A stretch of DNA of 64,000 bases from Escherichia coli. GTDB lineage: Bacteria; Pseudomonadota; Gammaproteobacteria; Enterobacterales; Enterobacteriaceae. A model generated the notes under the pieces. That model was not told the origin of the DNA. It made no database searches and was given only the letters and a program-made list of their open reading frames with translations. The position numbers and the translations under genes were made by a program. Position 1 is the first letter of the stretch. Every line of letters starts with the position of its first letter. Where the stretch lies: assembly GCF_045037415.1 (NCBI RefSeq), contig NZ_CP173438.1; one strand, written 5' to 3'. Positions 634 to 52,543 of this stretch are shown here, in pieces.

Positions 634-664
634 TGCTTGCAAAAACGAACAAAATAGGCCATAT

Positions 665-693
665 TTGACGCTAATTTGGTATGTTGCCAAATT
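665..693 (+). promoter_or_regulatory. putative late promoter resembling lambda pR' (-35 TTGACG, 17-nt spacer, -10 CAAATT)
   Basis: TTGACG at 665-670 and CAAATT at 688-693; lambda pR' has TTGACT/TAAATT as I recall. Confidence 0.3.
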
Positions 694-701
694 TCTAAGA
701 A

Positions 702-728
702 CCTCGCCACGGCGGGGTTTTGTCGTTT
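702..728 (+). terminator. putative tR'-like intrinsic terminator (short GC hairpin CCTCG..CGGGG followed by TTTTGTCGTTT)
   Basis: Hairpin plus T-rich tract read directly; located between the putative late promoter and the first lysis gene. Confidence 0.3.
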
Positions 729-745
729 CTGAATCAGGAAAAATC

Positions 746-1129
746 ATGTCTGAACCTCTAACCGCTGGCGTTGCTGCTGGCTCGGCGGGGGTGACGTTTG
801 CTGCGTTATTTCCTGAGGCAACACCTGCAGTGATGATCTGTGCGCTGGCAGGCGCAGCTCTCTATGTGTTGTCGTCCGGGCAGCATCGATTCTGGAAGCA
901 GGTTATTTTCGCACTCATTTCGTTTGTTGGCGGTGTGTATTGCGCTGAGACAGCGTCAGCCATCATTACCGGTATTCTGAACGCGGTGCTGAGTCACCTG
1001 AACCCTCCCGTAACAGTAAAAGTCTCTCCCGCCATTGGTGCACTGGTTGCATCAGTAATCAGCGTTACATCACTGTTGCGGATCATGTCACAAGCTCGTT
1101 TATGGAAATCAGATAAGGGGATGAAATAA
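746..1129 (+). CDS. putative holin / lysis membrane protein (127 aa, hydrophobic segments)
   Basis: ATG at 746 preceded by AGGAAA; ORF track frame 665..1129; hydrophobic TM-like stretches; first gene of lysis cassette. Confidence 0.4.
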   Translation: MSEPLTAGVAAGSAGVTFAALFPEATPAVMICALAGAALYVLSSGQHRFWKQVIFALISFVGGVYCAETASAIITGILNAVLSHLNPPVTVKVSPAIGALVASVISVTSLLRIMSQARLWKSDKGMK

Positions 1130-1401
1130 TGACCCTGCACTCTGTCCTCATCAATGCCAATGCAATTATTTGTCTGATGTTGGCACTACGGTTGATGTTT
1201 TTTCAAAAAACAGGCCGCTATCGTTTTTTCATCTCACTAACTGCTTACCTCGCGATTCTGTCTGCTGCGTGGATAGCCCTACGAATTTTTTACGGGAAAT
1301 ATACGCAGGTTGATCCCGCAGAGTTCTTTCTCAACCTCACCATCTGTATTGCTGTCTGGCGGGCACGAGGGAATATTTCAAAAATAACAGGAGACAGGTA
1401 A
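1129..1401 (+). CDS. putative holin-like small membrane protein (90 aa)
   Basis: ORF track; 2-3 hydrophobic helices; start overlaps stop of previous gene (ATGA). Confidence 0.4.
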   Translation: MTLHSVLINANAIICLMLALRLMFFQKTGRYRFFISLTAYLAILSAAWIALRIFYGKYTQVDPAEFFLNLTICIAVWRARGNISKITGDR

Positions 1402-1880
1402 TGACGGATCCTAAATGGCTAATCGAGGCTCGAAAAAACCTCGGCATTCGGGAAATGAAAGGGAAGCAACATGCTGCAGAAATTGTGCAGTACTGGAAAG
1501 ATATCAAACGCGGCGGCATTAAGGATGACGAAACACCGTGGTGCGCTGCTTTCACCGGGGCAATGCTGGAACGTGCGGGTATTCGCTCAACGCGTTTTGA
1601 GTCTGCGAATTCTTATCTCGATTGGGGTAATGAACTGAAGGAACCCGCCTATGGATGCATTGCTATTCTGTCTCGGTCTGGCGGTGGTCACGTCGGCTTT
1701 GTTGTCGGGAAAAATGCCGCCGGGGATTTAATGATTTTGGGGGGCAACCAGGCAGATGAAGTAAATATCAAAGCTTTTCCTCGTTCCCGCGTAACAGGCT
1801 ACCGCTGGCCAGCAGGTCAAACGGATGTTCCACAATCACTTCCATTGGTGAATGCTGAGAAATCTATCTCAGAAGCGTAG
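1401..1880 (+). CDS. putative endolysin (cysteine-peptidase/CHAP-like type found in place of lysozyme in some enterobacterial prophages)
   Basis: 159-aa ORF coupled to the two membrane proteins; sequence pattern recalled from TIGR02594-type prophage lysis proteins; position in cassette. Confidence 0.5.
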   Translation: MTDPKWLIEARKNLGIREMKGKQHAAEIVQYWKDIKRGGIKDDETPWCAAFTGAMLERAGIRSTRFESANSYLDWGNELKEPAYGCIAILSRSGGGHVGFVVGKNAAGDLMILGGNQADEVNIKAFPRSRVTGYRWPAGQTDVPQSLPLVNAEKSISEA

Positions 1881-1887
1881 GTAAAAC

Positions 1888-2082
1888 GTGAAAAAACTTC
1901 TCTTAGCTGTCGCGTTCTTCACGCTGGCAGGCTGCACACATTCGACATACACCGAAGCGACTCGCGCTGACGGCAGCAGTATTAAACACGTGATGATCGC
2001 GCCGGGTACGAAGATTACTACTGCGAACGGTGGTTGTATTGATTCAACCGGGGCAGAGGCTTCATGCCTTGGTGGAAAATAG
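1888..2082 (+). CDS. small lipoprotein (64 aa, lipobox LAGC), possible spanin-type lysis accessory protein
   Basis: Signal peptide MKKLLLAVAFFTLAGC; last gene of lysis cassette. Confidence 0.45.
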   Translation: MKKLLLAVAFFTLAGCTHSTYTEATRADGSSIKHVMIAPGTKITTANGGCIDSTGAEASCLGGK

Positions 2083-2141
2083 GGTAATTTACTTTAACGA
2101 GAGGCCGCCTTTTTGTTTTAAGGCGGCACACATTCAACAGA

Positions 2142-2402
2142 TTAAGGTAACTGATTTGACCATTTTGTTGCGCGCCAGTTGTTCTGAACCATAATCTTCT
2201 GAAGTATCTCATCTGAAGGCTCTGCTTCGCCGCTTAGCCATTCTCTTAAAGTTGAACAATTTAGATAAGAGGAGTTCGCACGATAAAAAGATACGATGGC
2301 GTCCTCTGATAACTTCTCAGGAAACTTTTTTGGGTCAGCTTCTTTTAATATTACGCTCATTAAGGCTTCAATTTTTTCTCTGTTCATTTTTTGCGTTCTC
2401 AT
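2142..2402 (-). CDS. hypothetical moron protein (81-86 aa) on opposite strand in AT-rich island; weak resemblance to DinI-family proteins
   Basis: ORF track; alternative ATG at 2387; low GC surroundings; antisense to late operon. Confidence 0.45.
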   Translation of the reverse strand: MRTQKMNREKIEALMSVILKEADPKKFPEKLSEDAIVSFYRANSSYLNCSTLREWLSGEAEPSDEILQKIMVQNNWRATKWSNQLP

Positions 2403-2755
2403 GGTTGTTGTTTTTCTGTAATGATATCAATAAGTTCAAGATATATACATATATGGAAAACTTGTTCGGTAGTCTATCGATACAGCACAAAAGGATGGCT
2501 CGCTGCCAAAGTGAAAGCTTACGCTGATAATCAGATACACAAAGCTGATGTATGCAAACAAGTACGCCGCGAGGCTACAGTTGAGTTTGATGAACCTGAT
2601 GCGAGCCCCTAATTCCTGTCCTGAAAGGGAGATAGCCCCCTGGTCGCGGGTCCTTTCCGAAATCCAAAACACCGAGGGTCGGTAGACGCGCAAAAACTCG
2701 CTCGTTTTTAGTATTTTTTCATTTTGGGTATTTCCGGTTCCGGTGAGGATTTTTA

Positions 2756-3322
2756 ATGGCAAGTCAGGCTGAGGTTGCAGCACATTTACTGCTATCTGAT
2801 CGTCGTCTGCGCGATCTCGCAAAACTTCCGGGAGCACCAGTCCCACAAGGACGTGGTGATTGGGAGCTAGACGCATGGCGCCATTTTTATATTCGTTATC
2901 TCCGGAGCAATAGACGCGACACAACTAGTAATGACGAACCGGAAGCGGGGGACAATTCTCCCGAAAAAAATCGCGAGCAGTGGCTGAAAAATGAGGAACG
3001 ACAGGAGCGAATCCTGATGGCACGAGTAAAACGCCGCATTCTCGCTAAACGCTACGCGCCAATTGAATTAATTAGCGTCGCTGTATCTCGCGTCGCCGTT
3101 GAATTACGTACCCGCGTCGAGTCGTGGCCACCACGCCTGAAAAAGGTCTGGCCGGAGATGCCGCAAGAGGCGAGCAGTGTATTACGAGAGGAGCTGGCGA
3201 TAGCCTTAAATGAGTTGTCAGACATACGAATCGACTTCAGCGATTACGATGTCAGCGATATCGAACGCGATCTCGACAGGGTTGAATCCCTTGCGCGTGA
3301 CGATACCGATGACGGGTGTTGA
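2756..3322 (+). CDS. terminase small subunit (Nu1-like)
   Basis: 188-aa ORF immediately upstream of and overlapping the large terminase; position and size. Confidence 0.6.
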   Translation: MASQAEVAAHLLLSDRRLRDLAKLPGAPVPQGRGDWELDAWRHFYIRYLRSNRRDTTSNDEPEAGDNSPEKNREQWLKNEERQERILMARVKRRILAKRYAPIELISVAVSRVAVELRTRVESWPPRLKKVWPEMPQEASSVLREELAIALNELSDIRIDFSDYDVSDIERDLDRVESLARDDTDDGC

Positions 3323-5171
3323 GTGGGCTGATAAATATTTTTATCTCCCTGAGGGCTCCAGCCACATCGCTGGGCACTGGACGACTCAGCCGGTCCAGGT
3401 AGTGATGCTCAATATGATGACGAACGACGCGATAAAAATCGTGTCTGTTCGCAAATCAGCTCGTCTCGGTTATACAAAAATACTCGTCGCGGCGCTGCTC
3501 TATTTCGCTGAGCACAAAAAACGTAGTGCCGTGGTCTATCAGCCTATCGATGACGAATCGGATGGATTTGTCGCCGACGAGGTTGACCCCGCTATCGCCG
3601 AAATGCCAGTGATTCAGAAAATTTTCCCCGACTGGGATAAAAGCAACGAGCGTAACAATCTCCAGCGTAAAGAAATGAGCGGCGCGATTCTTGATTTTCG
3701 CGGCGCGAGTGCACCAGGAAATTTCCGGCGACTAACGAAACAGGTTGTCGAGGGTGACGAAGTTGACGGCTGGCCGCTGGAAGTTGCCAAAAAAGGCAAA
3801 GGCGAGGGCTCGCCCATCGAACTGGCGCTCGTTCGAATTAAAGGGGCAGCGTACCCGAAGGCGATTTTTGGTTCGACGCCGACCGTTACCGGCAAAAGTC
3901 ATATCGAAATGCTCGAAGACGCTGCCGATCTGACGTTTCGTTTTTACCTGACATGTCCGCATTGTGGCGAGGAGCAGGTCCTGGTATTTGGTTTCGACGG
4001 TATCGAATACGGCCTCAAATGGGATAACAGCCTGCAGACCAATGAGGCGAAATCGTCGTCCGCGTATTACCAGTGCTGCCACTGCCCGGAACATTTTTAC
4101 TATCGCGATCTCGAAAAAATGGAGTTCGGGGGGCGCTGGATAGCCGAGGACTGCACCTGGACCCGAGACGGCATTCATTTTTTTGATCATGACGGTGGCG
4201 TCGTTCGCGCGCCGAAACACGCTGCGATCGTGATAAACGCCCTGTATTCACTAAACCTCGATGGATGGGGCGAGATTGTCAGCGAGTGGCTGAAAGCGAA
4301 AGGCGACCCGCTCAAGGAAAAGACGTTTCATAACACGACGCTCGGCGAACTCTGGAGCGACGTGGCCAGCGAGCAGCTGGAGCACGATATTCTGGTTAAT
4401 CGCCGGGAAAAATACGCCAGCCAGGTTCCTGACGGTGTTGTTTATATAACCGGCGGCATCGACTCTCAGACGTCCGGGCGCTACGAGTGTTATGTGTGGG
4501 GCTGGGGAGCCGAGGAGGAGTGCTGGCTGATTGATAAAACAATCGTCCTCGGTCGCTACGACGAGGAGGACACGCTGCAGCGCGTCGACGGAGTGATTCG
4601 CAAACAATACCGGCGCAGCGACGGGACCACAATCGGCGTCAGTCGCTGGGCGTGGGATACCGGTGGTATAGATGCGCAGGTCGTTTATAACCGCTCGCTG
4701 AAACTCGGTCCGCTGTGGGTCATTCCAATCAAGGGCGCGAGCTCATACGGCCAGCCGGTCGTAAATATGCCTCGTACCCGTAACGCGAATAAAGTGTATT
4801 TGTCGTTGATTGGGACAGATACAGCGAAAGACCTGCTCGCAATGCGCCTGCAGCTGGAACCCGACTCCAAATCGGCGACACCAGGTGCGATTCATTTTCC
4901 CAACGACGACGAAATATTCAGCACGACAGAGGCAAAACAGCTCGTCTCCGAGGTTCTGATCCCGAAACTCATTAACGGTCGCGTCGTTTATCGTTGGGAC
5001 AACCAGGGCCGGCGAAATGAGGCGCTCGACTGCTGGGTGTACGGACTGGCAGCGCTGCGTATCAGTAAAATTCGTTTCCAGCTCAATCTCGAGACGCTCG
5101 CTGAGCAACGGAAAAAATCACAAAACAAACTGTCTCTCGAGGAGATGGCCAGAATGCTCGGAGGGAGCTAA
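3210..5171 (+). CDS. terminase large subunit (lambda gpA-like)
   Basis: Recalled similarity to lambda gpA, e.g. AVEWAD.. and ACPHCGEEQ motifs (here TCPHCGEEQ), GSTP.V.G. Confidence 0.9.
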   Translation: MSCQTYESTSAITMSAISNAISTGLNPLRVTIPMTGVEWADKYFYLPEGSSHIAGHWTTQPVQVVMLNMMTNDAIKIVSVRKSARLGYTKILVAALLYFAEHKKRSAVVYQPIDDESDGFVADEVDPAIAEMPVIQKIFPDWDKSNERNNLQRKEMSGAILDFRGASAPGNFRRLTKQVVEGDEVDGWPLEVAKKGKGEGSPIELALVRIKGAAYPKAIFGSTPTVTGKSHIEMLEDAADLTFRFYLTCPHCGEEQVLVFGFDGIEYGLKWDNSLQTNEAKSSSAYYQCCHCPEHFYYRDLEKMEFGGRWIAEDCTWTRDGIHFFDHDGGVVRAPKHAAIVINALYSLNLDGWGEIVSEWLKAKGDPLKEKTFHNTTLGELWSDVASEQLEHDILVNRREKYASQVPDGVVYITGGIDSQTSGRYECYVWGWGAEEECWLIDKTIVLGRYDEEDTLQRVDGVIRKQYRRSDGTTIGVSRWAWDTGGIDAQVVYNRSLKLGPLWVIPIKGASSYGQPVVNMPRTRNANKVYLSLIGTDTAKDLLAMRLQLEPDSKSATPGAIHFPNDDEIFSTTEAKQLVSEVLIPKLINGRVVYRWDNQGRRNEALDCWVYGLAALRISKIRFQLNLETLAEQRKKSQNKLSLEEMARMLGGS

Positions 5172-5404
5172 TGACGTCGCGCGAGGTTTTAACAGAACGA
5201 CTGCTGGAAGCGGAAATCGCTCTGCACAAATTATTAACGGGTAAATCGACCGTGTCGCTGTCTCACGGCGATTCAGCAGGAAATAACCGGAGCTATCAAT
5301 ACTCGCAGGCGAGTATTGAGCAGCTCCGAACGTACATTATCGAGCTGAAATCACAGCTCGGTCTGAGTACGGGACGCCGTCGGCCCGTGGGAGTTCGATT
5401 ATGA
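5171..5404 (+). CDS. head-tail joining protein (lambda gpW-like)
   Basis: 77 aa; LH.L.TGK and Y..EL..Q.G pattern like lambda W; position between terminase and portal. Confidence 0.75.
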   Translation: MTSREVLTERLLEAEIALHKLLTGKSTVSLSHGDSAGNNRSYQYSQASIEQLRTYIIELKSQLGLSTGRRRPVGVRL

Positions 5405-6975
5405 CTGCTCCGCAGCAGCTGCTCGGGCCTGACGGTAAAACGCCACTACGCCGTTACGCGGGGTATAACGGCGGCGGTCCCGGTTTCGGTGGCCAGCTGA
5501 TTGACTGGAACGCACCACAGCAGAGCGCCGACGCAGCACTGTTGCCGAATTTTTATCGCGGTAACGCGCGAGCAGACGATCTCGTTCGCAATAACGGCGT
5601 CGCGTCGAACGCCGTGCAGCTGCACCAGGATCATATCGTCGGCAATCTGTTTAAGTTGAGTTATCGCCCTAACTGGCGTTACCTCGGCATATCTCGCGAG
5701 GACGCCAGGGCGCTGGCGCGTGACGTCGAGGTAGCGTGGACTGAATACGCCGAGGACCCTCACTGCACGATTGATATCGAGCGGAAACGGACGTTCACAA
5801 TGATGATCCGCGAGGGCGTGGCTACTCACGCTTTCAACGGTGAAACCTGCGTACAACCAGTCTGGGAGAGTAGTGCCGGCAGCGTTTTTCGGACGCGATT
5901 CAAAATGGTCTCACCGAAACGGATTCGAAATCCGGGTTACGCAGCTGACACTCAATTTCGCCGCGCCGGTGTTGATATCGATAAAAACGGGGCCGCGGTC
6001 GGGTACTGGATAGCCGAGGATACTTACCCTCTCGGCGGAGTCGGTAAATGCCGGCGTATCCCAGCACAGCTCAGCAGCGGCAGACACGCATTCATCCACA
6101 TATTCGAGCCGCTCGAGGACGGACAGACCCGCGGGGACAATATTTTTTACAGCGTCATGGAGCGCCTGAAAATGCTCGACACACTGCAGCAAACACAACT
6201 GCAGAGCGCCATTGTGAAGGCGATGTATGCCGCGACAATCGAATCAGAGCTCGACAGCCAGCAGGCGTTTGAATATATCGCCGGCGCGGGTACTGATATC
6301 GACTCGAACCCGCTGAATTCGTTTATTCAGAGTTACGTGACGTACTACAACGGCGCAAATATCAAGCTCGGTGGTGTGAAAGTTCCCCACCTGCATCCCG
6401 GCGACAAACTCAGTTTACAGACCGCTCAGAATGCTGATGCTGGTTTTAGTTCACTGGAAAAATCACTCCTGCGTTACGTTGCAGCTGGCGTTGGCGCGTC
6501 ATACGAAGAACTTAGCCGGGACTACAGCCAGGTCAGTTACTCCAGCGCCCGGGCCAGTGCTAACGTCAGCTGGCGATTTTTCATGGGGCGTCGACGTTTT
6601 ATCGCCGCGCGACAGGCGTCGCTGATGTTCTGCTGCTGGTTTGAAGAGGCGCTGGCACGCGGAATTATCACCCTGCCACGCTCAGCTGTCCGGTCGTTTT
6701 ATGAGGCGCGGAACTCCTGGACGAACGCGCTCTGGATCGGCGCTGGTCGCATGGCGATTGATGGGCTGAAAGAGGTTCAGGAGAGCGCCATGCGCATCAC
6801 AACTGGCCTCAGCACGTATCAGAACGAACTGGCGCTGCAGGGACAGGATTACGAGGAGGTTATGGAGCAGCAGGAATACGAAATTCAGCGCCGGCGTGAA
6901 ATGGGGCTGAGCGAACCGTCATGGTCTGTATCTCACCCCTCAAATACCAACGATAACGGCTGGGGAGGTAACTGA
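5401..6975 (+). CDS. portal protein (lambda gpB-like)
   Basis: 524 aa, position after W, size. Confidence 0.9.
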   Translation: MTAPQQLLGPDGKTPLRRYAGYNGGGPGFGGQLIDWNAPQQSADAALLPNFYRGNARADDLVRNNGVASNAVQLHQDHIVGNLFKLSYRPNWRYLGISREDARALARDVEVAWTEYAEDPHCTIDIERKRTFTMMIREGVATHAFNGETCVQPVWESSAGSVFRTRFKMVSPKRIRNPGYAADTQFRRAGVDIDKNGAAVGYWIAEDTYPLGGVGKCRRIPAQLSSGRHAFIHIFEPLEDGQTRGDNIFYSVMERLKMLDTLQQTQLQSAIVKAMYAATIESELDSQQAFEYIAGAGTDIDSNPLNSFIQSYVTYYNGANIKLGGVKVPHLHPGDKLSLQTAQNADAGFSSLEKSLLRYVAAGVGASYEELSRDYSQVSYSSARASANVSWRFFMGRRRFIAARQASLMFCCWFEEALARGIITLPRSAVRSFYEARNSWTNALWIGAGRMAIDGLKEVQESAMRITTGLSTYQNELALQGQDYEEVMEQQEYEIQRRREMGLSEPSWSVSHPSNTNDNGWGGN

Positions 6976-8282
6976 TGCCGTGGAACAATTTTCCGCACCT
7001 CGCCGCCAGGGCGTTCAATCAACCGCTTTTGCTGGAGCCCACCTACGCGCGGGTATTTTTTTCGGCGCTGAGCGACCGGTTCGGTACCGGGCGACTGATT
7101 GATACAGCGTCTGGAGAGGTAATGAACAGCGACGAAATGAACGCGCTCGCGATGGGGTGGGACAGCAGCGAGCGAACACGCCAGAAATCGTATCGCGTGG
7201 AGCGTGGTATAGCCGTTCTGCCGGTTACCGGGACGCTGGTTCATAAATTGGGTTATATCAACCCAGTTAGCGGGATGAGCGGTTACAACGGAATCGCAAA
7301 ACGCCTGCAGCAGGCGATTTCTGATCCCGATGTAAGAGGGGTCCTGCTTGATATTGACTCCCCTGGCGGTGAAGTCGCCGGCGCGTTTGATACTGCTGAT
7401 TTAATCGCCCGGGCGCGAGAGCAAAAACCTGTGTGGGCGCTGGCCAGCGATACGGCCTGCAGCGCTGCCTATTTGCTGGCGTCAGCGTGTTCGCGCCGGC
7501 TGATAACGCAGACAGGCACAGTTGGTTCAATCGGTGTCCTGATGGCTCACCGCTGCGTCGAAAAAGCGCTGGAGATTGCTGGCGTCGACGTGACGCTGAT
7601 TTACGCCGGCGCGCACAAAGTTGACGGGAACCCGTATTCCCAGCTGCCAGGCGACGTTCGCGACGAATTCCAGCTGAGTATTAACAGCACGCGCGAGCAG
7701 TTCGCGCAAAAAGTCTCGGATTATACCGGGCTGAAAAAATCCAGGGTGCTGGCCACGGAAGCTGCAGTATTTATCGGCGCGGACGCGATTAAATCTGGTC
7801 TCGCTGATCAACTCGTTAATTACGCGGACGCTATCGCAGTGATGGCCGACGCACTGAAACCAAAAATGGAGCGCTTTATGTCTGGTACAGAAACCACGGC
7901 GGAGACCACGACCACAGAACAAACCGCGACCACGACTACTGTCGCGCAGGTTGAGTTTAACACGGAGCAGATTCGCGCGGACGCCGCATCAAGCGAACTG
8001 GCGCGTGTGATGGCCATCATCAATTGTCCCGAAGCTGTTGGGCGCGAGGCGCAGGCAAAAGCGCTCGCTGGCGTCCCCGGGATGACGGTCGGGCAGGCGC
8101 AGGTAGTCCTCGCTGCAGCACCTAAAACGGCGCAGGCGCGGACAGAAACGGCGCTCGATACACTAATGAGCACTGAATCACCAGCGACTATTCAGGATGC
8201 TGGCAGTACTACGGCAACAGGAACAACCGCAAACGTCTCGATGCTGGTTGCTGCAGGGCGTTCAATTTTAGGGGATGAATAA
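6975..8282 (+). CDS. head maturation protease / scaffold (lambda gpC-like, S49 peptidase family)
   Basis: 435 aa; SppA/S49-like core (..DSPGGEV..) and position. Confidence 0.85.
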   Translation: MPWNNFPHLAARAFNQPLLLEPTYARVFFSALSDRFGTGRLIDTASGEVMNSDEMNALAMGWDSSERTRQKSYRVERGIAVLPVTGTLVHKLGYINPVSGMSGYNGIAKRLQQAISDPDVRGVLLDIDSPGGEVAGAFDTADLIARAREQKPVWALASDTACSAAYLLASACSRRLITQTGTVGSIGVLMAHRCVEKALEIAGVDVTLIYAGAHKVDGNPYSQLPGDVRDEFQLSINSTREQFAQKVSDYTGLKKSRVLATEAAVFIGADAIKSGLADQLVNYADAIAVMADALKPKMERFMSGTETTAETTTTEQTATTTTVAQVEFNTEQIRADAASSELARVMAIINCPEAVGREAQAKALAGVPGMTVGQAQVVLAAAPKTAQARTETALDTLMSTESPATIQDAGSTTATGTTANVSMLVAAGRSILGDE

Positions 8283-8611
8283 TGACTACAGAAACGTATA
8301 GCCCGGACGATTTTATTCTTGGGCCTGACCTTGTTGTCACGACCGTCGGTCATTTTCAGGGCGGGATCAACGTACCCCGGCTGACACCGATTATGCTCGA
8401 CGCTACTGTCGGGACGTTTAAGGTTTGGGACGGCTCAGTCGGTAAAGCTATTGGCCTCACTGCCACCGCAGTTAATACTGGCTCCAGTTCTGCAGACTGC
8501 TCGTACTATAAATCAGGCTCGTTCCGTTACACGGCGATTAACTGGGGTACGGTTACCGACGTAGCTAAACGCAAATCAGCATTTGCGGGTACGCCGATCA
8601 GCGTCGGCTGA
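8282..8611 (+). CDS. head decoration protein (lambda gpD-like)
   Basis: 109 aa; pattern ..TP.MLD....W DG... FYKSG.FRY.... FAGT.IS like lambda D. Confidence 0.75.
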   Translation: MTTETYSPDDFILGPDLVVTTVGHFQGGINVPRLTPIMLDATVGTFKVWDGSVGKAIGLTATAVNTGSSSADCSYYKSGSFRYTAINWGTVTDVAKRKSAFAGTPISVG

Positions 8612-8632
8612 TAGCAAAAAACTCAAAACAAG

Positions 8633-8653
8633 CCGCCTCCGGGCGGTTTTTTT
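8633..8653 (+). terminator. hairpin plus T7 between decoration and capsid genes (intra-operon intrinsic terminator/attenuator)
   Basis: CCGCC-TCCG-GGCGG followed by TTTTTTT. Confidence 0.4.
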
Positions 8654-8669
8654 ATAACAGGATATATAA

Positions 8670-9705
8670 ATGAGCGATTCGTTTACTACGTCAGAACTGA
8701 TTACCGCGACACAGCAGGTATTTAAGTTCAATCCGTTGTTTTTAAAGCTGTTTTTCCGTGAGACCTACACGTTTACGAGCGAAGAGGTTTTTCTGGATAA
8801 AATCCCGGGAAAAGTGAACATGGCCGTGTACTGCGCGCCGATGATCACCGGCAAAGTTGACCGCACTCGCGGCTATTCAACGAACCATTTCAAACCGGGT
8901 TACACGAAACCCAAGCACACGATCAATCCGAATATGAGCATCAAGCGCGCAGCCGGTGAGCAGATTGGCCAGCCGGAAACGCCGGTCGAACGTCGTGCAA
9001 AAATCATCATGCAGAACCTGCTTGATGAGGAACTGAGCATCAGCCAGCTCGAAGAGTTCCAGGCGGTACAGGCTGTTCTGTACGGTAAATACACTGTTTC
9101 CGGCAGCAATATCGAGAACCTATGAGATCGACATGAGCCGCAGCGCGACGAATAACGTCACTCAGTCCGGTTCGACAGCCTGGTCGACTCAGGACGCGGA
9201 AACGTATGACCCGAGCGACGATATTGAATCCTACGCGGACCTCGCCTCCGGTGCGGTTAACGTGATCATCATGGATGGTAAAGCCTGGAAGCAGTTGAAG
9301 CGTTTTAAAAAATTCTGGACGGCACTGGATACGCGCCGTGGCTCAAACAGCCAGCTCGAGGTCGCGCTGAAAAACCTGGGCGACGTTGTCAGCTTTAAAG
9401 GCTACTACGGCGACACTGCGCTGTTTGTCTACAAAGGGCAATACCTCGACCCGGTAACAGACACTGAAACGCGTTATATGCCGGATAACACGATGATCCT
9501 TGGCAACACAAAAAACCGCGGGCTCCGCACTTATGGCGCAATTCAGGACGAAGACGCGCTGAAAGAGGGTATTTCCGAAGCGACGCGCTATCCAAAAGTC
9601 TGGACCACTACCGGTGATCCGGCAGTGACGCAAACAATGACGCAATCCGCGCCAGCAATGGTCCTCACGGACGCCGACGCGTTCGTTGTCGTAAAAATCG
9701 CGTAA
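8670..9705 (+). pseudogene. major capsid protein (lambda gpE-like) interrupted by +1 frameshift near 9115-9125; N part 8670..9125, C part in +1 frame to 9705
   Basis: Both ORF-track pieces (151 aa and 190 aa) align to consecutive parts of lambda E by recall; their start coordinates differ in frame (8670 vs 9133). Confidence 0.85.
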
Positions 9706-9739
9706 GAGTCGAAAGGCTCTTTTTTGTTAAGGAATCAAC

Positions 9740-10159
9740 ATGAGCACAAAAACAGAATTGCTGGCGCGTATTGACGATCTGAGCGCTCAGCTCGGTCGCG
9801 AATTACCGCGCAGCGGGACTATTGCGGAACTGGAATCAATCGTTGCCGGCGCTGAGTCAGAGCTCGATATTCTGAACGAGCAATCCGGTGACGCGGGAGG
9901 CATCGAGATTACAGTGAATACTGCGTCCGGGACCGATAATGAACTCGCTCAATCAATCGCGAGCGCTATCGTTTCACAGTCACAAGAGCAGGAGCTCGCA
10001 CCGGCTACGCGCCGCGTCAAGTTGCGTAACACGCTGGACGTTTATCACTACGTGAACGGGCGTCGCGTTCGCGAGATTGTTGCCGCAGGCCGTGAAATTG
10101 TTGTTGATTCACCGGAGGTCGCAGACCTTATCGCAGCTGATCACGTTTACGCTCTATGA
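9740..10159 (+). CDS. DNA-packaging / head completion protein (lambda FI-like)
   Basis: 139 aa, position after capsid gene, N-terminal pattern similar to lambda FI. Confidence 0.5.
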   Translation: MSTKTELLARIDDLSAQLGRELPRSGTIAELESIVAGAESELDILNEQSGDAGGIEITVNTASGTDNELAQSIASAIVSQSQEQELAPATRRVKLRNTLDVYHYVNGRRVREIVAAGREIVVDSPEVADLIAADHVYAL

Positions 10160-10536
10160 GCTACTACGATGACCTCCGGGCCGGCGACGAGGAGATGATC
10201 CGTGAGTGGGGACGGCCCGTTAAATTACGCGGTAAAACCGACCCCATTATCGCTATTTTCAACGAGCCTTACGCGCGCGTTGACGTTCCTCACGCTGGTT
10301 TTATTACCGGTACAGTAACGAGCCTGACGGCGCTCTCGGACGACGTCGCTGGCGTTGTTGCGCGTGACGTCGTCCAGGTTCCAAAGCAGCGCAGCATCGA
10401 ACCTGACGGCTCTGTTACCTGGTCTGGCTGGACCGATTACGTGGTTAAAGAGCCTCAACCTGATGGCACAGGGCTCACGAATATTTTTTTAGAGCCTCAC
10501 ACGTCCAGCGAAAACAGCGAGTATTCAAAATACTAA
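10156..10536 (+). CDS. head-tail connector / head completion (lambda FII-like)
   Basis: 126 aa, position. Confidence 0.45.
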   Translation: MSYYDDLRAGDEEMIREWGRPVKLRGKTDPIIAIFNEPYARVDVPHAGFITGTVTSLTALSDDVAGVVARDVVQVPKQRSIEPDGSVTWSGWTDYVVKEPQPDGTGLTNIFLEPHTSSENSEYSKY

Positions 10537-10567
10537 GTGGGACCTCGGTCCCACTTAAGGGGGAACC

Positions 10568-10948
10568 GTGGCCGATTTACGTAGTAACGCGCAGATGTTC
10601 GATATCGATGTTTCGGCGCTGGAGCAGCTCAGAGTCGAAATCAGCGCGACGCAACATCAAATGTTAATGGTATACAACAGGGCGCTGAACCGAACTGCAA
10701 AACATATGCACCGAATTTCAGCAGGAATGATTTTGACTGCACTGGCAGCTAAAAATCATAAGGCCGTAGATAAACGAATCAAGCCGTTCATTAAGCGCCG
10801 TAATTTTACAAAAGAAGGGGCAGGAGACCTGAGCAGCGCCAAGCTCTGGTACGGTCTGAATGATTTCCGGGTATCTGAGCTAAAGGGGCGATTACAAAAT
10901 CCACGGAGGCAAAAACAGCCTCGCGATCTTGAACCGGCCTGTTTTTGA
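10568..10948 (+). CDS. putative tail completion / virion morphogenesis protein
   Basis: ORF track; position between head and baseplate modules. Confidence 0.35.
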   Translation: MADLRSNAQMFDIDVSALEQLRVEISATQHQMLMVYNRALNRTAKHMHRISAGMILTALAAKNHKAVDKRIKPFIKRRNFTKEGAGDLSSAKLWYGLNDFRVSELKGRLQNPRRQKQPRDLEPACF

Positions 10949-11247
10949 AAACCAAAAAAGGCGCTAGAGGGGCAACTTTTACACCCAAAAGTGCAGGGCT
11001 GGCGATGATGAGTTGGCCCGATTCATTCGTAGCGAAACGCTACGGTGCGAAAAGTGTCTGGATTCGACTGGATCGCGGAGGAATCGAAGAGGCTCGCGTA
11101 CCTGTGCACGACGCGCTGGAGGATGCTATCGATGATTATATTTTTGAAAACATTGGCCCTGTTTTTATGGGCTTTTTTGAGAAAGATTTGCGCGGTCGCG
11201 TGAAAGGTAATGTCCACGTAGACCCAAAAACAGGTAAACGATTATGA
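10945..11247 (+). CDS. hypothetical phage protein (TTG start at 10945; alternative ATG at about 11005)
   Basis: ORF track; 4-nt overlap with upstream gene. Confidence 0.3.
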   Translation: MKTKKGARGATFTPKSAGLAMMSWPDSFVAKRYGAKSVWIRLDRGGIEEARVPVHDALEDAIDDYIFENIGPVFMGFFEKDLRGRVKGNVHVDPKTGKRL

Positions 11248-11780
11248 GCGGACTGGATGCATTTGACGAATATCTTGATCGCGTTAAAGGCGCGGTTTTA
11301 CAAATACCGTTCATCAAAACATTCGGAATTTATCCGGAAATTCCGGCTGGATTTGAAACGCCAGCTCTGTTCCTGGAAATCAGCAACTGGTCACAGAGTG
11401 ACGAATCGGTTCCAGGCTCAATTCAGTCAGTCGAGCTGTCGTGTAATTTGTATTTGCTGCGTGAATTTGCAGCTGATCAGTACGGACTGAAATCGCAGAA
11501 TGCAGCGCTCTATATGACGAGCTGGATCAATGGGCGAATGTTCGGTCCCGGAACTAAACCGGCAAAATTCAGCGACGCGGAACCGTGCGACTGGATTAAA
11601 AACGGGCAGTCAGTCGGTTCGCATTCAGTTCAGTGCGTGTCGTTCACGCAGGTTGTAGGCGTTGGTCCAGATATTTTCGATTATCCCTCACAGGGGACCC
11701 TGAAAAATATATACGTCGGAATAGCACCAGATATCGGCGCAGAACATGAGGGCGACTATTATGGCCCAATCGGACGATGA
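11244..11780 (+). CDS. putative tail completion / neck protein
   Basis: ORF track 178 aa; position. Confidence 0.35.
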   Translation: MSGLDAFDEYLDRVKGAVLQIPFIKTFGIYPEIPAGFETPALFLEISNWSQSDESVPGSIQSVELSCNLYLLREFAADQYGLKSQNAALYMTSWINGRMFGPGTKPAKFSDAEPCDWIKNGQSVGSHSVQCVSFTQVVGVGPDIFDYPSQGTLKNIYVGIAPDIGAEHEGDYYGPIGR

Positions 11781-12663
11781 ATATGCTGCAGCGGAGAACG
11801 CGCGCAGGCTGCGTGACGCAGTTAAACGCGGCACGATAGCTGCAGTTAAAATGAATCCTCCACGCTGCCGAGTCTCATTTGGTGGCGAACACCAGTCAGG
11901 CTGGCTGCAGTGGTTTACTCACGCCACCTCAGAACGCGTCGACTGGAGCGCACCATCAGTGGGCGATCCCGTTACTGTTGTTTCTGAGGGTGGGGATACG
12001 CGGAACGGTGTAGTTATGCTCGGGCTGCACATTGACGACAAAGCTCCGCCAAGCAATGACCCCCATGATCATGTCACTGCATACTGTGACGGGGCTACGA
12101 TGACGTATAACACAAAAAATCACACTCTGACATGGCAGGGCGTACCGGACGGCGTGGTAAAAATACTCGGTGAGTCTGAAATAGAAATATTTGGACGCGC
12201 AGATGTTACTATTAATAGCGAAAATGTAGTTAATATCCATGGTGGGAAATTAATTAACGCAGACGCTGATATTATTAATGTCACAGCGACAGATACAATT
12301 AACGCACATGCTGATTTAGTGAACGTTATAGCAACGAGTTCTGTTAGTGTTACTGCTGCGAACAGAATATCGCTGACAGCTCAAACAATCAGCGCGTGGG
12401 CTCCGGGTGGTATAACACTAGCTGGTCCAACGCATATTACCGAGACATTAGTAGTAGATAAATTAGCGACATTCCGTAACGATATTTCTGTCACTGGAGA
12501 TAACGGTGGAACAGGTAATATCACAACTCGCGGTAGTGTGTTAGCAGGGCAAGAGGTGCAGGACCGACAAGGCACAATAACTGAAGTCCGCACAACGTAT
12601 AACGGACACACTCATATATGTCCGGACGGGGAAACTCAACAACCGAACCAACCAATGGCGTAA
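11746..12663 (+). CDS. baseplate assembly protein V (spike; P2 gpV-like)
   Basis: CRV..GG..SGWLQW.TH pattern typical of gpV N-domain; repetitive C-terminal beta-helix-like region. Confidence 0.75.
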   Translation: MRATIMAQSDDEYAAAENARRLRDAVKRGTIAAVKMNPPRCRVSFGGEHQSGWLQWFTHATSERVDWSAPSVGDPVTVVSEGGDTRNGVVMLGLHIDDKAPPSNDPHDHVTAYCDGATMTYNTKNHTLTWQGVPDGVVKILGESEIEIFGRADVTINSENVVNIHGGKLINADADIINVTATDTINAHADLVNVIATSSVSVTAANRISLTAQTISAWAPGGITLAGPTHITETLVVDKLATFRNDISVTGDNGGTGNITTRGSVLAGQEVQDRQGTITEVRTTYNGHTHICPDGETQQPNQPMA

Positions 12664-12665
12664 AG

Positions 12666-13007
12666 ATGCTTGGAATGGACCGTAACACCGGTAAACTTTT
12701 ATCGGGGACTGATCACATTCGTCAGTCTATCGTTGATATTTTAACGACCCCGCTGGGGACGCGTGTAATGCTGCCGGAATATGGCAGCAAATTATTTGAT
12801 CTTGTTGATAATCCCACAGATCCGTCGCTTGCTATGCGAATAATCATGGAAAGCGCTGGCGCAATAGCACGATGGGAACCACGCGTCAGAATTGACAGAA
12901 TAAATGTGTTAGCAGTGGATATCGGGAAAATAACAATATTAATTATCGCAACAGATATCGAAACACAACAGCGATTAGAGTTTAATAATATGGAGCTGAT
13001 ATTTTGA
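12666..13007 (+). CDS. baseplate protein W (gp25-like)
   Basis: Pattern ILTTP.G.R.M.P.YGS like P2 gpW; ATG at 12666 just after V stop. Confidence 0.8.
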   Translation: MLGMDRNTGKLLSGTDHIRQSIVDILTTPLGTRVMLPEYGSKLFDLVDNPTDPSLAMRIIMESAGAIARWEPRVRIDRINVLAVDIGKITILIIATDIETQQRLEFNNMELIF

Positions 13008-13924
13008 TAACATCAACAGTTCAGAATTCGATAGTGAAAACTATTGATATGAGTCTGCTGCCGCCGCCAGCATTCGTTAAAACCCCGTTATTTTCAGATG
13101 TTAAATCTAATCTACTGTCAGAGCTGCAGATATTATATCCACAATTTAACGCACTCCTGGAGTCAGACCCGGCCGTTAAACTGCTGGAAATAGTTGCATA
13201 CAGAGAAATCATTATTACAGCTCGGGTAAATCAGGGGATGCTCGCTGTATTGCTCGCGTTTGCAAAGGGGAGTGACCTCGACCAGATTGGCGCTAATTTT
13301 GACTGCCTGCGGCTGTTGATAACGCCAGCTAATCCCGATGTAATTCCCCCGACTGAGGCTGTTTACGAGAGTGACGACGAGTATCGACACCGAATACAGC
13401 TATCATGGTATGCGCGGAATACTGCCGGCAGTACGAACGCCTATAACTATTTCGCGCTGTCGAGTGATCCCGACGTTCTGTCAGCTCAGGCGTACGGCCC
13501 GCCGGTGACCCAGCCTGGATACGTCGATATGTATGTCTTGTCGCGAACCGGCGACGGCACTCCGCCTCAATCACTACTGAATACAGTGAATGCGGCCCTG
13601 TCTCCTGACGATACTCGACCGCTGACTGATTTCGTGACTGTAAAACCTGCGTCGAACCTGAATTACCGGGTTGAGGCCGTTATCGTAGCCGGGCTCGGAC
13701 CCGACCAGAACGTTTTGCTTAACGGTGCTCAGAGCGATTTGGCGATATATGTGGATACGCAACATAAAATCGGAGCGACGGCAGCTCTGTCAGGAATTTA
13801 CGACGCGATACATCGTGACGGCACTGAACGTGTGATTCTGATATCGCCAACAGAGGATGTGATCGCTGGCGTCGGGCAGGCTCCGTACTGCACAGAAATC
13901 AAACTCAGCGTGCAAATGGGGTAG
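13004..13924 (+). CDS. baseplate assembly protein J
   Basis: 306 aa, size and position match P2 gpJ. Confidence 0.8.
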   Translation: MITSTVQNSIVKTIDMSLLPPPAFVKTPLFSDVKSNLLSELQILYPQFNALLESDPAVKLLEIVAYREIIITARVNQGMLAVLLAFAKGSDLDQIGANFDCLRLLITPANPDVIPPTEAVYESDDEYRHRIQLSWYARNTAGSTNAYNYFALSSDPDVLSAQAYGPPVTQPGYVDMYVLSRTGDGTPPQSLLNTVNAALSPDDTRPLTDFVTVKPASNLNYRVEAVIVAGLGPDQNVLLNGAQSDLAIYVDTQHKIGATAALSGIYDAIHRDGTERVILISPTEDVIAGVGQAPYCTEIKLSVQMG

Positions 13925-13926
13925 CC

Positions 13927-14553
13927 ATGACAAGTCAAAGCGTACTGCCTCCGAACGCAATAACCCCTGAGAGGGCGCTTGAGGTTGTTTTATCTCACGT
14001 CGGCGATCTGCCTGGCGATATTCGAATTATTAAAAATCCCGATTTGTGCCCTGCAAATCTGTTGCCGTGGCTGGCGTGGGAGTACGCGGTCACCTACTGG
14101 AACCCCGACTGGAGTGAGCAGCAAAAACGCGAAATTATTAAAGCAGCTGCGTGGCAGAATAAGCACCGCGGAACGCGTGGAGCTGTTGAACGAGCGTTAT
14201 TAACTGTTGGCTTTGAGAGCAAAATGAGAGAGTGGTTTGAAGCCACGCCCAGGGACGACCCGTATACATTCGCAATTAAAATATATCTGCTAAAAAGCAT
14301 GGGGTTAGATTTAGAACTATTGAATACATTTATTGCACAAATATTTGATGCAAAAAATTGTCGTTCCTTATTAAAAGAAATAAATTTCGAAACGGGTGTC
14401 GATGGTGAGTTTTTTATAGCCGGTACACCTTACGCGAAAATAGGCGTAAACGTCCCAGCAGACGGCGACGGCGGTGTAAAAATTAACGGCGGGCTATATA
14501 TATCGGGCTCACCAATTGTTAGTTTAAATGTGGAGATAGGGCCAAATGGCTGA
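13927..14553 (+). CDS. tail protein I (baseplate)
   Basis: 208 aa, position after J. Confidence 0.7.
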   Translation: MTSQSVLPPNAITPERALEVVLSHVGDLPGDIRIIKNPDLCPANLLPWLAWEYAVTYWNPDWSEQQKREIIKAAAWQNKHRGTRGAVERALLTVGFESKMREWFEATPRDDPYTFAIKIYLLKSMGLDLELLNTFIAQIFDAKNCRSLLKEINFETGVDGEFFIAGTPYAKIGVNVPADGDGGVKINGGLYISGSPIVSLNVEIGPNG

Positions 14554-15730
14554 AAATAAAATTTACGCAGTACTGACAGACCGTGGCGCACAACTTGAAG
14601 CCGCTGCGCTGGCATCGGGTGTACCCGTGGTGCTGAATAAATTCGTTATTGGCGACGCAAACGGAAACGACGACGTAACACCGGACCCGGCACGAACTGC
14701 ATTAATTCACGAGACGTATCGTGGGGATATTAAATCCGCAGAAAATAGCGGTAACCAGGTTATCTTTACACTTTACGTACCGCCAGACACTGGGGGCTAT
14801 ACTATCCGTGAGGTGGGGATATTAACAGATAAAGGCGAGCTGTACTCTGTGGCGCGCTCGCCGGACATTTTAAAACCTACGGACAGCAACGGTGCGCTGA
14901 TTTCAATCACGTATAAATACACACTCGCGGTGTCCAGCACATCTACGGTTAATGTTGTAGTATATGACAACTACGTAACTCCCGAGGAAGCTGACAAAAA
15001 ATATTTGCAGATAAGTAAAAACTTATCTGAAATTCCCGCAAATGGTGAAACTGCTCAGCAGGCTGCGCGGAAAAATATTGGTATAGATGGGGACGTTGCA
15101 TATAGAGATAAGGGTAATGCATTTACTCATCCAAATACTTTTAAAGATGATGTGATTTTTGAAGACGTTTTATCCTCTAAAAAACAAATAAATATAAACA
15201 AACCGGGCACTGATTTGACGTTGTTTTCATTTGCTGGTTTATCAGATGTGTCGGGCGATTATTTAGATTTTTCGACCCGTGGAGAAAACAATCAGAAGGT
15301 TTTTTATAGATTACGCGGAGTTCACTATGATGGCCTGGTGTTACTGTGCGGCGGGCAGACGTATAAATACTGGAATGAGGCTAATCTTAAACCGGTTAAA
15401 ACGATTAACGGGGAGTCGCCGGATGAAAATGGCAACATAGATATAAGTCTTTCACCGGACCCATCACCGGAAATAGGTGTTGTTGGCGCGGTTGGTACTT
15501 ATGCGCTTGTCGCTATTAATCATGCACCACAAATACTCCCGGGCTCCATATGGGCTGGAGGGGATTTATATTACGCTAGTATAAATAATACCGGTTCATA
15601 TAACACGGATATTGCCACAAAACCATTTTATGACACACCACTTATTGGCTCATGGCGAGCCATGGCGTATTCACCCGGTGGAGTCGGTGATATTGGGACT
15701 GCCTGTTTTTTAGCTATTAGGATTGCGTAA
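14546..15730 (+). CDS. tail fiber protein (P2 gpH-like conserved N-terminus, divergent low-GC C-terminus)
   Basis: N-terminal region resembles conserved tail-fibre anchor domain; C-terminal half AT-rich. Confidence 0.7.
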   Translation: MAENKIYAVLTDRGAQLEAAALASGVPVVLNKFVIGDANGNDDVTPDPARTALIHETYRGDIKSAENSGNQVIFTLYVPPDTGGYTIREVGILTDKGELYSVARSPDILKPTDSNGALISITYKYTLAVSSTSTVNVVVYDNYVTPEEADKKYLQISKNLSEIPANGETAQQAARKNIGIDGDVAYRDKGNAFTHPNTFKDDVIFEDVLSSKKQININKPGTDLTLFSFAGLSDVSGDYLDFSTRGENNQKVFYRLRGVHYDGLVLLCGGQTYKYWNEANLKPVKTINGESPDENGNIDISLSPDPSPEIGVVGAVGTYALVAINHAPQILPGSIWAGGDLYYASINNTGSYNTDIATKPFYDTPLIGSWRAMAYSPGGVGDIGTACFLAIRIA

Positions 15731-16119
15731 TGATAAGCGTTGATTCATTTAGAAAAATAACAAACCCTGTTTTTAATGACGAGCATGGGTTATCTATAAA
15801 TATTATTTGCGATATTGACGGGATTGGAAACGACATTCCATTCACCGCAATGAAAAATGATTGCGAGGAACACGGTAGGGTTTTATATGAAAGAGCGCTG
15901 AGCGGGGATTATGGGAGCATTTCTAAATTTGTAAAAAAAGAGCAGACGCAAAAACTCCAGACTACATTACGGACTGTTGGCGATCTGTCAATTGAGGCAT
16001 TCTCAATTCAGTGTGCAGTAGATGCCGGAACCGCATCTGACGCGCAAATCGAAAATTTGGCCGAGCTTAAAGAAGCAATAGCGACGCGAATTGGTGAAAA
16101 TAGAGAAGGAATAAAATGA
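15730..16119 (+). CDS. putative tail fiber assembly / chaperone protein
   Basis: 129 aa ORF directly after fibre gene, low GC. Confidence 0.4.
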   Translation: MISVDSFRKITNPVFNDEHGLSINIICDIDGIGNDIPFTAMKNDCEEHGRVLYERALSGDYGSISKFVKKEQTQKLQTTLRTVGDLSIEAFSIQCAVDAGTASDAQIENLAELKEAIATRIGENREGIK

Positions 16120-17618
16120 GCGTAACTAATTTTTTACACGGTATTCGCACGCTCGAATACGACGACGGCACAAAAGAGATCAACACAGTAGATATTTCCG
16201 TGATTGGGATTGTTGGTACTGCTCCCGATTCCAGCTACCCAACTTGTGCATCACTATTATGGGGATCAGAGCTCGCAGACAATCTTGTTGAGTTTTCGAC
16301 TGTCATGCCAGGGGCCGACGGAAACAACTGGATTGTTGAAATTGTTGATTTGGGAATTAACGGGAATGTAGCAACTCCAGGATACAGCACACTGCCCGAC
16401 GGTTCGAGAAAATTAACAATGATCACGGACGGTGCCATGACCCCGTCAAAAATGTACGATCAGAACCAGCAGTATAAAGAAGGACTCCAGATTGGAGAAT
16501 ATATTAACGTCACATTCGGTGGTGATCACGCAGGAACGGGGACTGTATTCGCGCTCCCCCCAACAAATTTATCCGGTGGTAAAGACGAATCGTTCAAATA
16601 TAATGTTCCGACGTTAATTGCAGGCAGTCAAAAAAAAGCTGGATTGCTCGGTGGGTCTGGAACCCTTCCTCCCGCTGTATCTGAAATACTAAATCAGGAG
16701 GATGCCATTATTGTTGTTGTCCGCGTCGAAGAGGACAGCGACGAAACAAAAATGCGGCAGAACGTCGTTAACGGGATTAACGCATTGTTGACGTCTGCGC
16801 AAATAAATCAAGTAACGCCGAGAATTTTAATCGCTCCAGATTATAGTGCTAACGATTATATTGCAGAACAACTTGAAGTGGTGACAAATAAATTACGAGG
16901 CGTTGGATATATCGATTCACCGCGAGGCGCTACGCCTGCTGACGTTGTAAATCGTCGTCAGAGGTACGGCGGCAGAATGGAAATTCTGCGCCCTCGTGTT
17001 TATTCTACGAGTGATGTTAGTGGTTTATCTCGTCCGTATTCAGCTATCGCTGCTGGTTTACGAGCCAGAATTGATAACGAAAAAGGGTTTTGGTGGAGCA
17101 AATCGAATCAAAATATCTACGGAATTACAGGACTCGAACAAGTCGATGATTTTATAATCGGTGAAACGAACTGCACAGCAAATCTGCTGAACGCCAGCCA
17201 GGTCAGCACAATTATTCGCTATGATGGATTCAGACACTGGGGTAACTATCTGTGTAGCCTCAGTCCCCAATGGTCCTTTGAATGCGTTCGTCGGACAGCT
17301 GACGTAATTGAGGATTCAATAGCCCGGGCAATGATGACCGATTTTATTGATCGCCCGATAGACCTGCACCTCGGAACAGACGTTGTAGAGTCGATAAACG
17401 CGTATCTGCATAAATTAGAGGAGCAGGGCGCGATTAACGGAGGACGGGCGTGGTTAGATGAAGAGTTAAATACAAAAGAAAGTCTGGCCGCTGGTAATCT
17501 TTATATTAATGTTGACTTTGGACCGAAATCCCCGGCACAAACAATTACGTTAATGTACCGCATTAATAATGATTACACAGTTGAAGCTCTGGCCTCTCTT
17601 TTTAAAGAAACAGTCTAA
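16116..17618 (+). CDS. contractile tail sheath protein (P2 FI-like)
   Basis: 500 aa; N-terminal MS..N..HG...LEY pattern like P2 FI; size and position. Confidence 0.85.
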   Translation: MSVTNFLHGIRTLEYDDGTKEINTVDISVIGIVGTAPDSSYPTCASLLWGSELADNLVEFSTVMPGADGNNWIVEIVDLGINGNVATPGYSTLPDGSRKLTMITDGAMTPSKMYDQNQQYKEGLQIGEYINVTFGGDHAGTGTVFALPPTNLSGGKDESFKYNVPTLIAGSQKKAGLLGGSGTLPPAVSEILNQEDAIIVVVRVEEDSDETKMRQNVVNGINALLTSAQINQVTPRILIAPDYSANDYIAEQLEVVTNKLRGVGYIDSPRGATPADVVNRRQRYGGRMEILRPRVYSTSDVSGLSRPYSAIAAGLRARIDNEKGFWWSKSNQNIYGITGLEQVDDFIIGETNCTANLLNASQVSTIIRYDGFRHWGNYLCSLSPQWSFECVRRTADVIEDSIARAMMTDFIDRPIDLHLGTDVVESINAYLHKLEEQGAINGGRAWLDEELNTKESLAAGNLYINVDFGPKSPAQTITLMYRINNDYTVEALASLFKETV

Positions 17619-17635
17619 TAATCTGGAGAATTGAT

Positions 17636-18148
17636 ATGGCAGATAGTAACACCTATCGTGCATTTGCGTTGTTCGTCCAGGGAGAACGAGTTTTAAATTG
17701 CACTGAATACACTCCCGTCGATATGAAAATAATCGAAGATGATTTTAAGACGGGCGCTATGGATACAGCTATCACTCTGGACGGGGGAATGGAGAAAATG
17801 TCAGCCAGTTTTAAAGTCTCTGGCTCCGATTCTGGTGTGATGGGGTATTTGGGATTAATACCAGGTGCTAAAACAAGGTTCGAAATTCGAAGTGCATATA
17901 CTGACAATTACGGTGTCAATTTTGAACGTATTGATACATATGAGGGGCTTATTACGGCGATTACTGATGACGCGCAGGGGACTGATTCAAAATCAGCAGT
18001 TGGGCAATCAGTAACGATTGCGCCGAGCTATTATAAACGAGTTCAAAATGGAAAAATTATTTACGAGATTCATCCTGCAAAAATGAAACGAGTAATTAAT
18101 GGTGTTGACGTTCTTGCGGGCGTTGCTCGTATTCTCCATGTATATTAA
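17636..18148 (+). CDS. tail tube protein (P2 FII-like)
   Basis: 170 aa directly after sheath. Confidence 0.7.
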   Translation: MADSNTYRAFALFVQGERVLNCTEYTPVDMKIIEDDFKTGAMDTAITLDGGMEKMSASFKVSGSDSGVMGYLGLIPGAKTRFEIRSAYTDNYGVNFERIDTYEGLITAITDDAQGTDSKSAVGQSVTIAPSYYKRVQNGKIIYEIHPAKMKRVINGVDVLAGVARILHVY

Positions 18149-18160
18149 AAGGCAAATAAA

Positions 18161-18442: not shown

Positions 18443-18550
18443 TTATTCTGATTCCGTTTATTGCGAAAAAACTTGCCATCCCGCCCGATACGCAAATGGA
18501 CCTGCCGTACCGGGTTTTTAATTTCTATGTAAACGAGGTCATGAAAATCG

Positions 18551-49971: not shown

Positions 49972-49974
49972 TGA

Positions 49975-50006
49975 TAAAAAAGCCGATGTCTGCAATGACA
50001 TCGGCT
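49975..50006. terminator. bidirectional intrinsic terminator between convergent flhE and argS
   Basis: A6-AGCCGATGTC-TGCAA-TGACATCGGCT. Confidence 0.7.
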
Positions 50007-50023
50007 GTTGCCGTATAACGCGA

Positions 50024-52539: not shown

Positions 52540-52543
52540 CTAA

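Follow-up and report, generated by a model that had tools for sequence, protein, structure and literature searches.

An extra base splitting the major capsid gene of an Escherichia coli ST131 prophage is very probably a base-calling error at a methylated Eco31I site

The stretch of DNA analyzed here (the window, 64,000 nucleotides) is, judging from its sequence, part of the chromosome of Escherichia coli ST131. Positions 1..60210 align to the reverse strand of EC958 (2,006,0xx-2,066,276) and contain a prophage and the chromosomal genes yecA, tyrP, ara, ots, flhDC, mot, che, flhBAE, argS, torYZ, cmoAB and yecE. The head module of the prophage shows a lambda-type gene order: terminase, gpW, portal, S49 protease, decoration protein, capsid and FI. 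This order was taken from the annotation of strains 447, SK1144 and EC958, and matching ORFs are seen in the window. The tail module downstream of it is contractile and P2-like, with sheath, tube and baseplate V/W/J/I genes; the prophage shares its head gene order with lambda but differs from it in joining this head to a P2-like tail.

The major capsid gene of the prophage, which is of the lambda gpE type, is located at 8670..9705 on the plus strand and appears as two ORFs. The first one (8670..9125, plus strand) encodes an N-terminal fragment of 151 amino acid residues and ends at a TGA stop made by an extra base. The second one (9133..9705, plus strand) encodes a C-terminal fragment of 190 residues from its first ATG, although its frame is open from 9037, and the two frames overlap over 9037..9125. 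The first-pass annotation of this DNA had described both ORFs as the two halves of a gpE-type capsid gene, with the second in the +1 frame, and our analysis agrees in both respects, since 8670 and 9133 leave remainders of 0 and 1, respectively, when divided by three. Residues 4-344 of the intact protein align end to end with residues 3-341 of lambda gpE (PDB 7VI9) with an E-value of 1.2e-127, and residues 6-342 match positions 1-328 of the 329 positions of the Pfam model Phage_cap_E (PF03864) with an E-value of 1.7e-59. The gpE-like identity of the product therefore stands, but not the length of 341 amino acids that had been given with it, as the intact protein has 344.

The extra base lies in the sequence GAGAACC at 9114..9120. 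If either A (9117 or 9118) is left out, the two frames join into an uninterrupted ORF of 344 codons (..SGSNIETYEIDMSRS..); a continuous ORF after this removal had been proposed from the sequence. Alignment to intact homologous capsid genes, suggested as a check in the first-pass annotation, shows 100% identity between the repaired 344-residue product and WP_001283997.1, an intact E. coli protein annotated as "major capsid protein" in E. coli SK1144 and EC958. In sister assemblies, the NCBI pipeline PGAP independently labels the 1036-bp version of the gene as "major capsid protein, frameshifted". The gene, 1036 bp as assembled and with a true length of 1035 bp (344 amino acids), is almost certainly intact in the organism and an ordinary prophage gene.

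Comparison of the window with EC958 over the 60,210 aligned bases shows only two differences, both of them 1-bp indels, and no substitutions. These are the extra A at 9117 and a missing G at 10932/10933, and each one is found inside a GAGACC hexamer. The aligned stretch contains eight GAGACC/GGTCTC sites, and the probability that both differences land in them by chance is about 6e-7. Strain SK1144, which shows no match to the M1.Eco31I-type methyltransferase gene and was used as a methyltransferase-free negative control, departs from EC958 at 12 places within these 60 kb, none of them at a motif site.

The first of the two corrupted Eco31I/EcoMI sites (9114..9120, plus strand) reads GAGAACC in the window and in all 18 insertion-bearing public assemblies described below, and GAGACC in EC958, SK1144 and 427 other genomes. 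Its spurious base at 9117/9118 is a duplicated A and corresponds to the m6A position of GAG-m6A-CC. The second corrupted site (10931..10935, plus strand) reads GAACC, having lost one G in relation to the reference GAGACC. It lies in the next gene but two after the capsid gene (10568..11247, plus strand), which encodes a protein of 226 amino acids when intact (WP_000774516.1) and which the lost G splits into 10568..10948 and 10945..11247. We consider this split as a second false frameshift at an Eco31I site. Across assemblies the site is read as GAGACC, GAGAACC, GAACC or GGAACC, and the exact GAACC variant of the window was found in only seven public genomes, all of them "Esc" assemblies.

The remaining sites are correct in the window. 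Two of them are GGTCTC sites: the one at 5907..5912 is read as GGTTTC in 447 and A1.S1.126, and the one at 7797..7802 as GGTTCTC in A1.S1.126, whose S49 peptidase gene is annotated as "frameshifted" at that place. The GAGACC site at 7902..7907 is correct in all 18 insertion-bearing assemblies too. Furthermore, a GAGACC site inside the capsid gene itself (8760..8765) is read as GAAACC or GGAACC in eight sister assemblies, and the one at 10824..10829 as GAAACC or GAGAACC in sister assemblies. The last GAGACC site (35700..35705) is chromosomal and located outside the prophage.

Among 5,426 complete E. coli genomes, 445 contain a match to the 1036-bp capsid gene, with an identity of at least 99% in 419 cases; the ST131 reference strains EC958 and JJ1886 are among these matches. 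An exact 40-mer across the insertion is present in 18 of the 5,426 genomes, and in the remaining 427 that contain the gene its length is 1035 bp. The insertion-bearing genomes are those of 447, 439 and 446 from Taiwan, with chromosomes of about 5.2154 Mb; twelve "Esc" isolates, with chromosomes of 5,156,475-5,156,537 bp; A1.S1.126 from Poland; and UID2404240038 and UID2309220027 from Thailand. In addition, all four matching phage records carry a single-frame 1035-bp capsid gene. These records (ON470596, ON470604, ON470624 and ON470627) are named "Escherichia phage vB_EcoM-...", have 20-27 kb, and their intact gene is annotated as "major capsid protein E".

These counts bear on whether a programmed +1 ribosomal frameshift could join the two ORFs in vivo. 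The overlap of the two frames makes such a shift geometrically possible. However, in 427 of the 445 genomes one uninterrupted frame of otherwise identical DNA encodes the protein, the GAG AAC CUA UGA at the join gives no +1 re-pairing where ..IETYE.. must be restored and contains no slippery sequence, and neither lambda gpE nor any solved homologue is made from more than one frame. We give this explanation a negligible probability, in accordance with the first-pass annotation, which had held that no programmed frameshift operates here.

All 18 insertion-bearing loci were compared with EC958, and 9,038 bp containing seven Eco31I sites were common to all of them. In this common region, every difference from EC958 falls on an Eco31I site, with the exception of two SNPs in A1.S1.126. 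When the 18 assemblies and the window were pooled, 56 of 67 differences from EC958 were located in Eco31I sites (binomial P of about 2e-125), the target being defined as the site plus or minus one base, which represents 0.36% of the compared bases. Changes at Eco31I sites are found at or adjacent to the modified base, and individual sites show between two and four states. Most of the differences outside Eco31I sites look like technical errors as well, among them G7 read as G6, A8 read as A7, and a C lost from the Dcm site CCAGG.

The twelve Esc assemblies belong to one clone, and their chromosome lengths vary by no more than 62 bp. Nevertheless, nine different patterns of the seven sites are found among them, against a background in which the rest of the 9 kb is identical to EC958. 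Two further assemblies of the same clone, Esc29 (5,156,506 bp) and Esc8 (5,156,493 bp), are outside the list of 18 and were found with the 40-mer of the second artefact (GAACC at 10931). Both have an intact capsid gene of 1035 bp with GAGACC, encoding WP_001283997.1, and in both of them two other Eco31I sites are still miscalled. As twelve assemblies of the clone carry the capsid frameshift and two do not, and they differ only at methylation sites, the frameshift does not behave as a heritable character.

The first-pass annotation had left two possibilities, an inactivating mutation or an assembly error. According to the first, the prophage would be in decay, and a genuine 1-bp insertion, inherited in an ST131 sublineage, would have inactivated its capsid gene. 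Genuine prophage pseudogenes look alike, in that a single-base indel splits a structural gene which annotation pipelines flag as "frameshifted", and here PGAP flags the gene in 18 public genomes with an identical GAGAACC throughout. The presence in the same prophage of a real truncated gpD-like tail gene, in common with EC958, points in the same direction. A genuine pseudogene is, however, inherited and arbitrary in position, while the capsid case is on the motif, scattered across lineages and inconsistent within a clone. The insertion falls on a methylated Eco31I base and the sole other difference in 60 kb falls in another such site, sister assemblies differ from each other only at Eco31I sites, and Esc29 and Esc8 are intact although they belong to the same clone as twelve assemblies with the frameshift. 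Furthermore, Poland, Thailand, Taiwan and the Esc project are all represented among the carriers, which are scattered in relation to the yecE marker described below, and 427 genomes are intact. On the location at an Eco31I site, the disagreement within one clone and the intact sisters, we reject the inactivating mutation as very unlikely and favor the error, the extra A being the methylated base of an Eco31I site and sister assemblies disagreeing at such sites.

The yecE marker is the junction of a second prophage, which is inserted in yecE at 60210/60211; positions 60211..64000 contain its start, which is lambdoid. It begins with a tyrosine integrase gene (60229..61542, minus strand) followed by an excisionase gene and ead/Ea22-like genes. 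This prophage is absent from EC958 and SK1144, its exact junction is found in about 130 public genomes, and 77 public genomes match at least 80% of window positions 60100..64000. Among the insertion-bearing genomes, the junction is present in A1.S1.126 and missing from the Esc, 447, 439 and UID genomes, and Ecol_AZ146, ZH063 and THO-003 show the junction together with an intact capsid gene. Since all four combinations of insertion and yecE junction exist, the capsid insertion does not track descent. Esc3 and Esc25 are equal to the window at all motif sites yet lack its yecE junction; A1.S1.126 shares the junction but not the motif-site states. This combination of junction and motif-site states marks the window as a further independent instance beyond the 18 public records. 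A SNP at 13481 was also considered as a lineage marker of the insertion-bearing genomes, but it was discarded because it is the common ST131 allele (408 genomes) and SK1144 is the outlier.

The motif shared by the corrupted sites is that of a methylation system described in ST131. Eco31I recognizes GGTCTC/GAGACC, one strand of which receives m6A and the other m5C, according to Bitinaite et al. (1992) as cited by Forde et al. (2015; PMC4659465). The latter authors reported that M1.EcoMI and M2.EcoMI of EC958 are 100% identical to the Eco31I methyltransferases and that, by SMRT sequencing, 100% of the GAGACC adenines of EC958 are m6A at GAG-m6A-CC, made by M1.EcoMI, while M2.EcoMI is predicted to produce GGT-m5C-TC on the opposite strand. 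The type IIS system is located on the leuX island of EC958; ST131 strains of clades A and C possess it, apart from rare exceptions, and those of clade B do not. Furthermore, prophages and genomic islands of EC958 are enriched in GAGACC/GGTCTC sites (PMC4659465). Nanopore data have also revealed methylation of both GAGACC and GGTCTC in E. coli ATCC 25922 (PMC12679398).

In the EC958 genome, the Eco31I genes are found at 4,977,699-4,982,256 (GI-leuX), adjoining mcrBC and about 2.9 Mb away from the capsid gene, and they are annotated as an "Alw26I/Eco31I/Esp3I family" methyltransferase, a cytosine-5 methyltransferase and an endonuclease. The presence of the methyltransferase was analyzed with a chimeric query made of the capsid gene and 900 bp of the M1.Eco31I-type gene. 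Among the matches listed, this gene is present in 17 of 17 insertion-bearing genomes (17 of the 18). We infer that the genome of the window also contains the Eco31I methyltransferase genes, at a locus outside the 64 kb; the system would be the cause of the artefact and not part of the feature itself.

Taken with the motif location of the differences, these data suggest how the extra base could have arisen. The Eco31I-type IIS system of ST131 would methylate every GAGACC/GGTCTC, with m6A on GAG-A-CC and m5C on GGT-C-TC. When native methylated DNA is read by a signal-based long-read method, the modified bases would distort the signal, and the base-caller may miscall or miscount bases at or beside them, leading to a wrong consensus. 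Small shifts in the proportions of reads could then decide whether the error enters the final consensus. At 9114..9120 the methylated A would have been duplicated (GAGACC to GAGAACC), splitting the capsid gene, and at 10931..10935 a G would have been dropped, splitting the neighboring gene. The error pattern indicates that the sequencing platform was almost certainly Oxford Nanopore.

Errors of this kind have been described by Lohde et al. (2024; PMC11610573) and Dabernig-Heinz et al. (2024; PMC11389150). As these reports outline them, base-calling of native bacterial nanopore reads goes wrong systematically at methylated motifs, in a strain-specific manner. The position of these errors at the read level is conserved across laboratories, the consensus outcome varies by run with small differences in the share of wrong reads, and PCR amplification or methylation-aware models remove the errors. 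The errors found here are likewise bound to a motif and variable in outcome, and they also produce false alleles and pseudogenes. They differ in type, since the published descriptions considered here concern A/G and C/T substitutions (PMC11610573, PMC11389150), whereas many of the errors found here are 1-bp indels. Our literature search did not find GGTCTC/GAGACC described as a nanopore error motif.

Two observations argue against an artefact: the capsid site shows one and the same error (GAGAACC) throughout the 18 assemblies and the window, which alone resembles an inherited allele, and the prophage already holds one genuine frameshift in ST131, in the gpD-like tail gene (21006..21779). The artefact reading nevertheless fits the data, because the changes are bound to the motif, variable, and absent from the methyltransferase-free SK1144 and from hundreds of assemblies of the same lineage. 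We therefore consider it very probable that the extra A is a base-calling error at a methylated Eco31I site and that the capsid gene is really intact, the cause being base-calling at a methylation motif rather than a homopolymer error or a mis-assembly.

A different explanation of the same motif association is that Eco31I sites are true mutational hot spots in ST131 through methylation or restriction damage, and that the frameshift is real, recurrent and reversible, affecting a fraction of each population. The strict confinement of the changes to the motif and their recurrence in unrelated isolates are in line with this idea, and the change of GGTCTC to GGTTTC at the m5C position matches real deamination of 5-methylcytosine. 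However, up to four of the seven sites are altered within 9 kb of one assembly in which nothing else has changed, which would require an absurd site-specific rate, and assemblies of earlier accession listed with the same methyltransferase and prophage have the 1035-bp gene. Such changes would also have had to escape notice in hundreds of further assemblies that have this system, and m6A is not known to be mutagenic. In addition, the cut made by Eco31I lies away from the sequence it recognizes, and scars of repair would therefore not be expected within the motif (PMC4659465). Real hot spots are thus extremely improbable. The same low probability applies to the proposal that hypermutable Eco31I sites produce indels which toggle the capsid gene and other site-rich prophage genes, as a form of restriction-modification-linked prophage control or phase variation.

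If the base-calling explanation is right, about 4% (18 of 445) of the public complete E. coli genomes with this prophage report a false capsid pseudogene. In some records, the 226-aa gene and the S49 peptidase gene are also falsely split, each at an Eco31I site, and other false splits in those records would come from a Dcm site (the TIGR02594 gene) and from homopolymers (the tail sheath and tape-measure-like genes). Eco31I sites would thus give public ST131 genomes frameshifts and alleles that do not exist in the organisms, a matter of low biological import. As prophages and islands of EC958 are enriched in these sites, pseudogene counts, calls of prophage "defectiveness" and allele or SNP typing would be systematically biased in unpolished native long-read assemblies of ST131.

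Other genes of the prophage also show length differences. The P2 gpD-like tail gene (21006..21779) has 774 bp in the window, EC958, 447, A1.S1.126 and the UID strains, and 1044 bp in SK1144, where it is annotated as "contractile injection system protein, VgrG/Pvc8 family". The two forms are set apart by an extra A at about 21773, GGACAAGG in relation to GGACAGG of SK1144. This A was considered as a further artefact and rejected, because it is off the motif and common to EC958, and is taken as a real polymorphism; it may make the prophage defective in most ST131 strains. A 1641-bp tape-measure-like tail gene contains a G run at 19499..19505, which is G7 in the window and EC958 and G6 (or G5) in 447, A1.S1.126 and both UID strains, where the gene is annotated as two ORFs. 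A miscounted homopolymer probably accounts for the G6/G5 reading of those records. At the equivalent of window position 1748, approximately, A1.S1.126 shows CAGG instead of the Dcm site CCAGG, and its TIGR02594-family lysis gene is annotated as "frameshifted"; the window is correct at this place. The loss looks like another artefact at a methylation site. The S49 peptidase and tail sheath genes of A1.S1.126 are flagged as frameshifted too.

Finally, two observations concern the chromosomal part of the window. In the interval between tar and cheR (approximately 42956..43107), all that is left of a Tar-like chemoreceptor gene is a short remnant, annotated as "frameshifted; incomplete" in EC958 and SK1144. 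On the E. coli K-12 map, this interval is the place of tap. As the window is identical to EC958 there, the remnant is a real feature of the lineage and no artefact. In the intergenic region upstream of araF (approximately 27974), a TA repeat is two bases shorter than in SK1144 and the same as in EC958.
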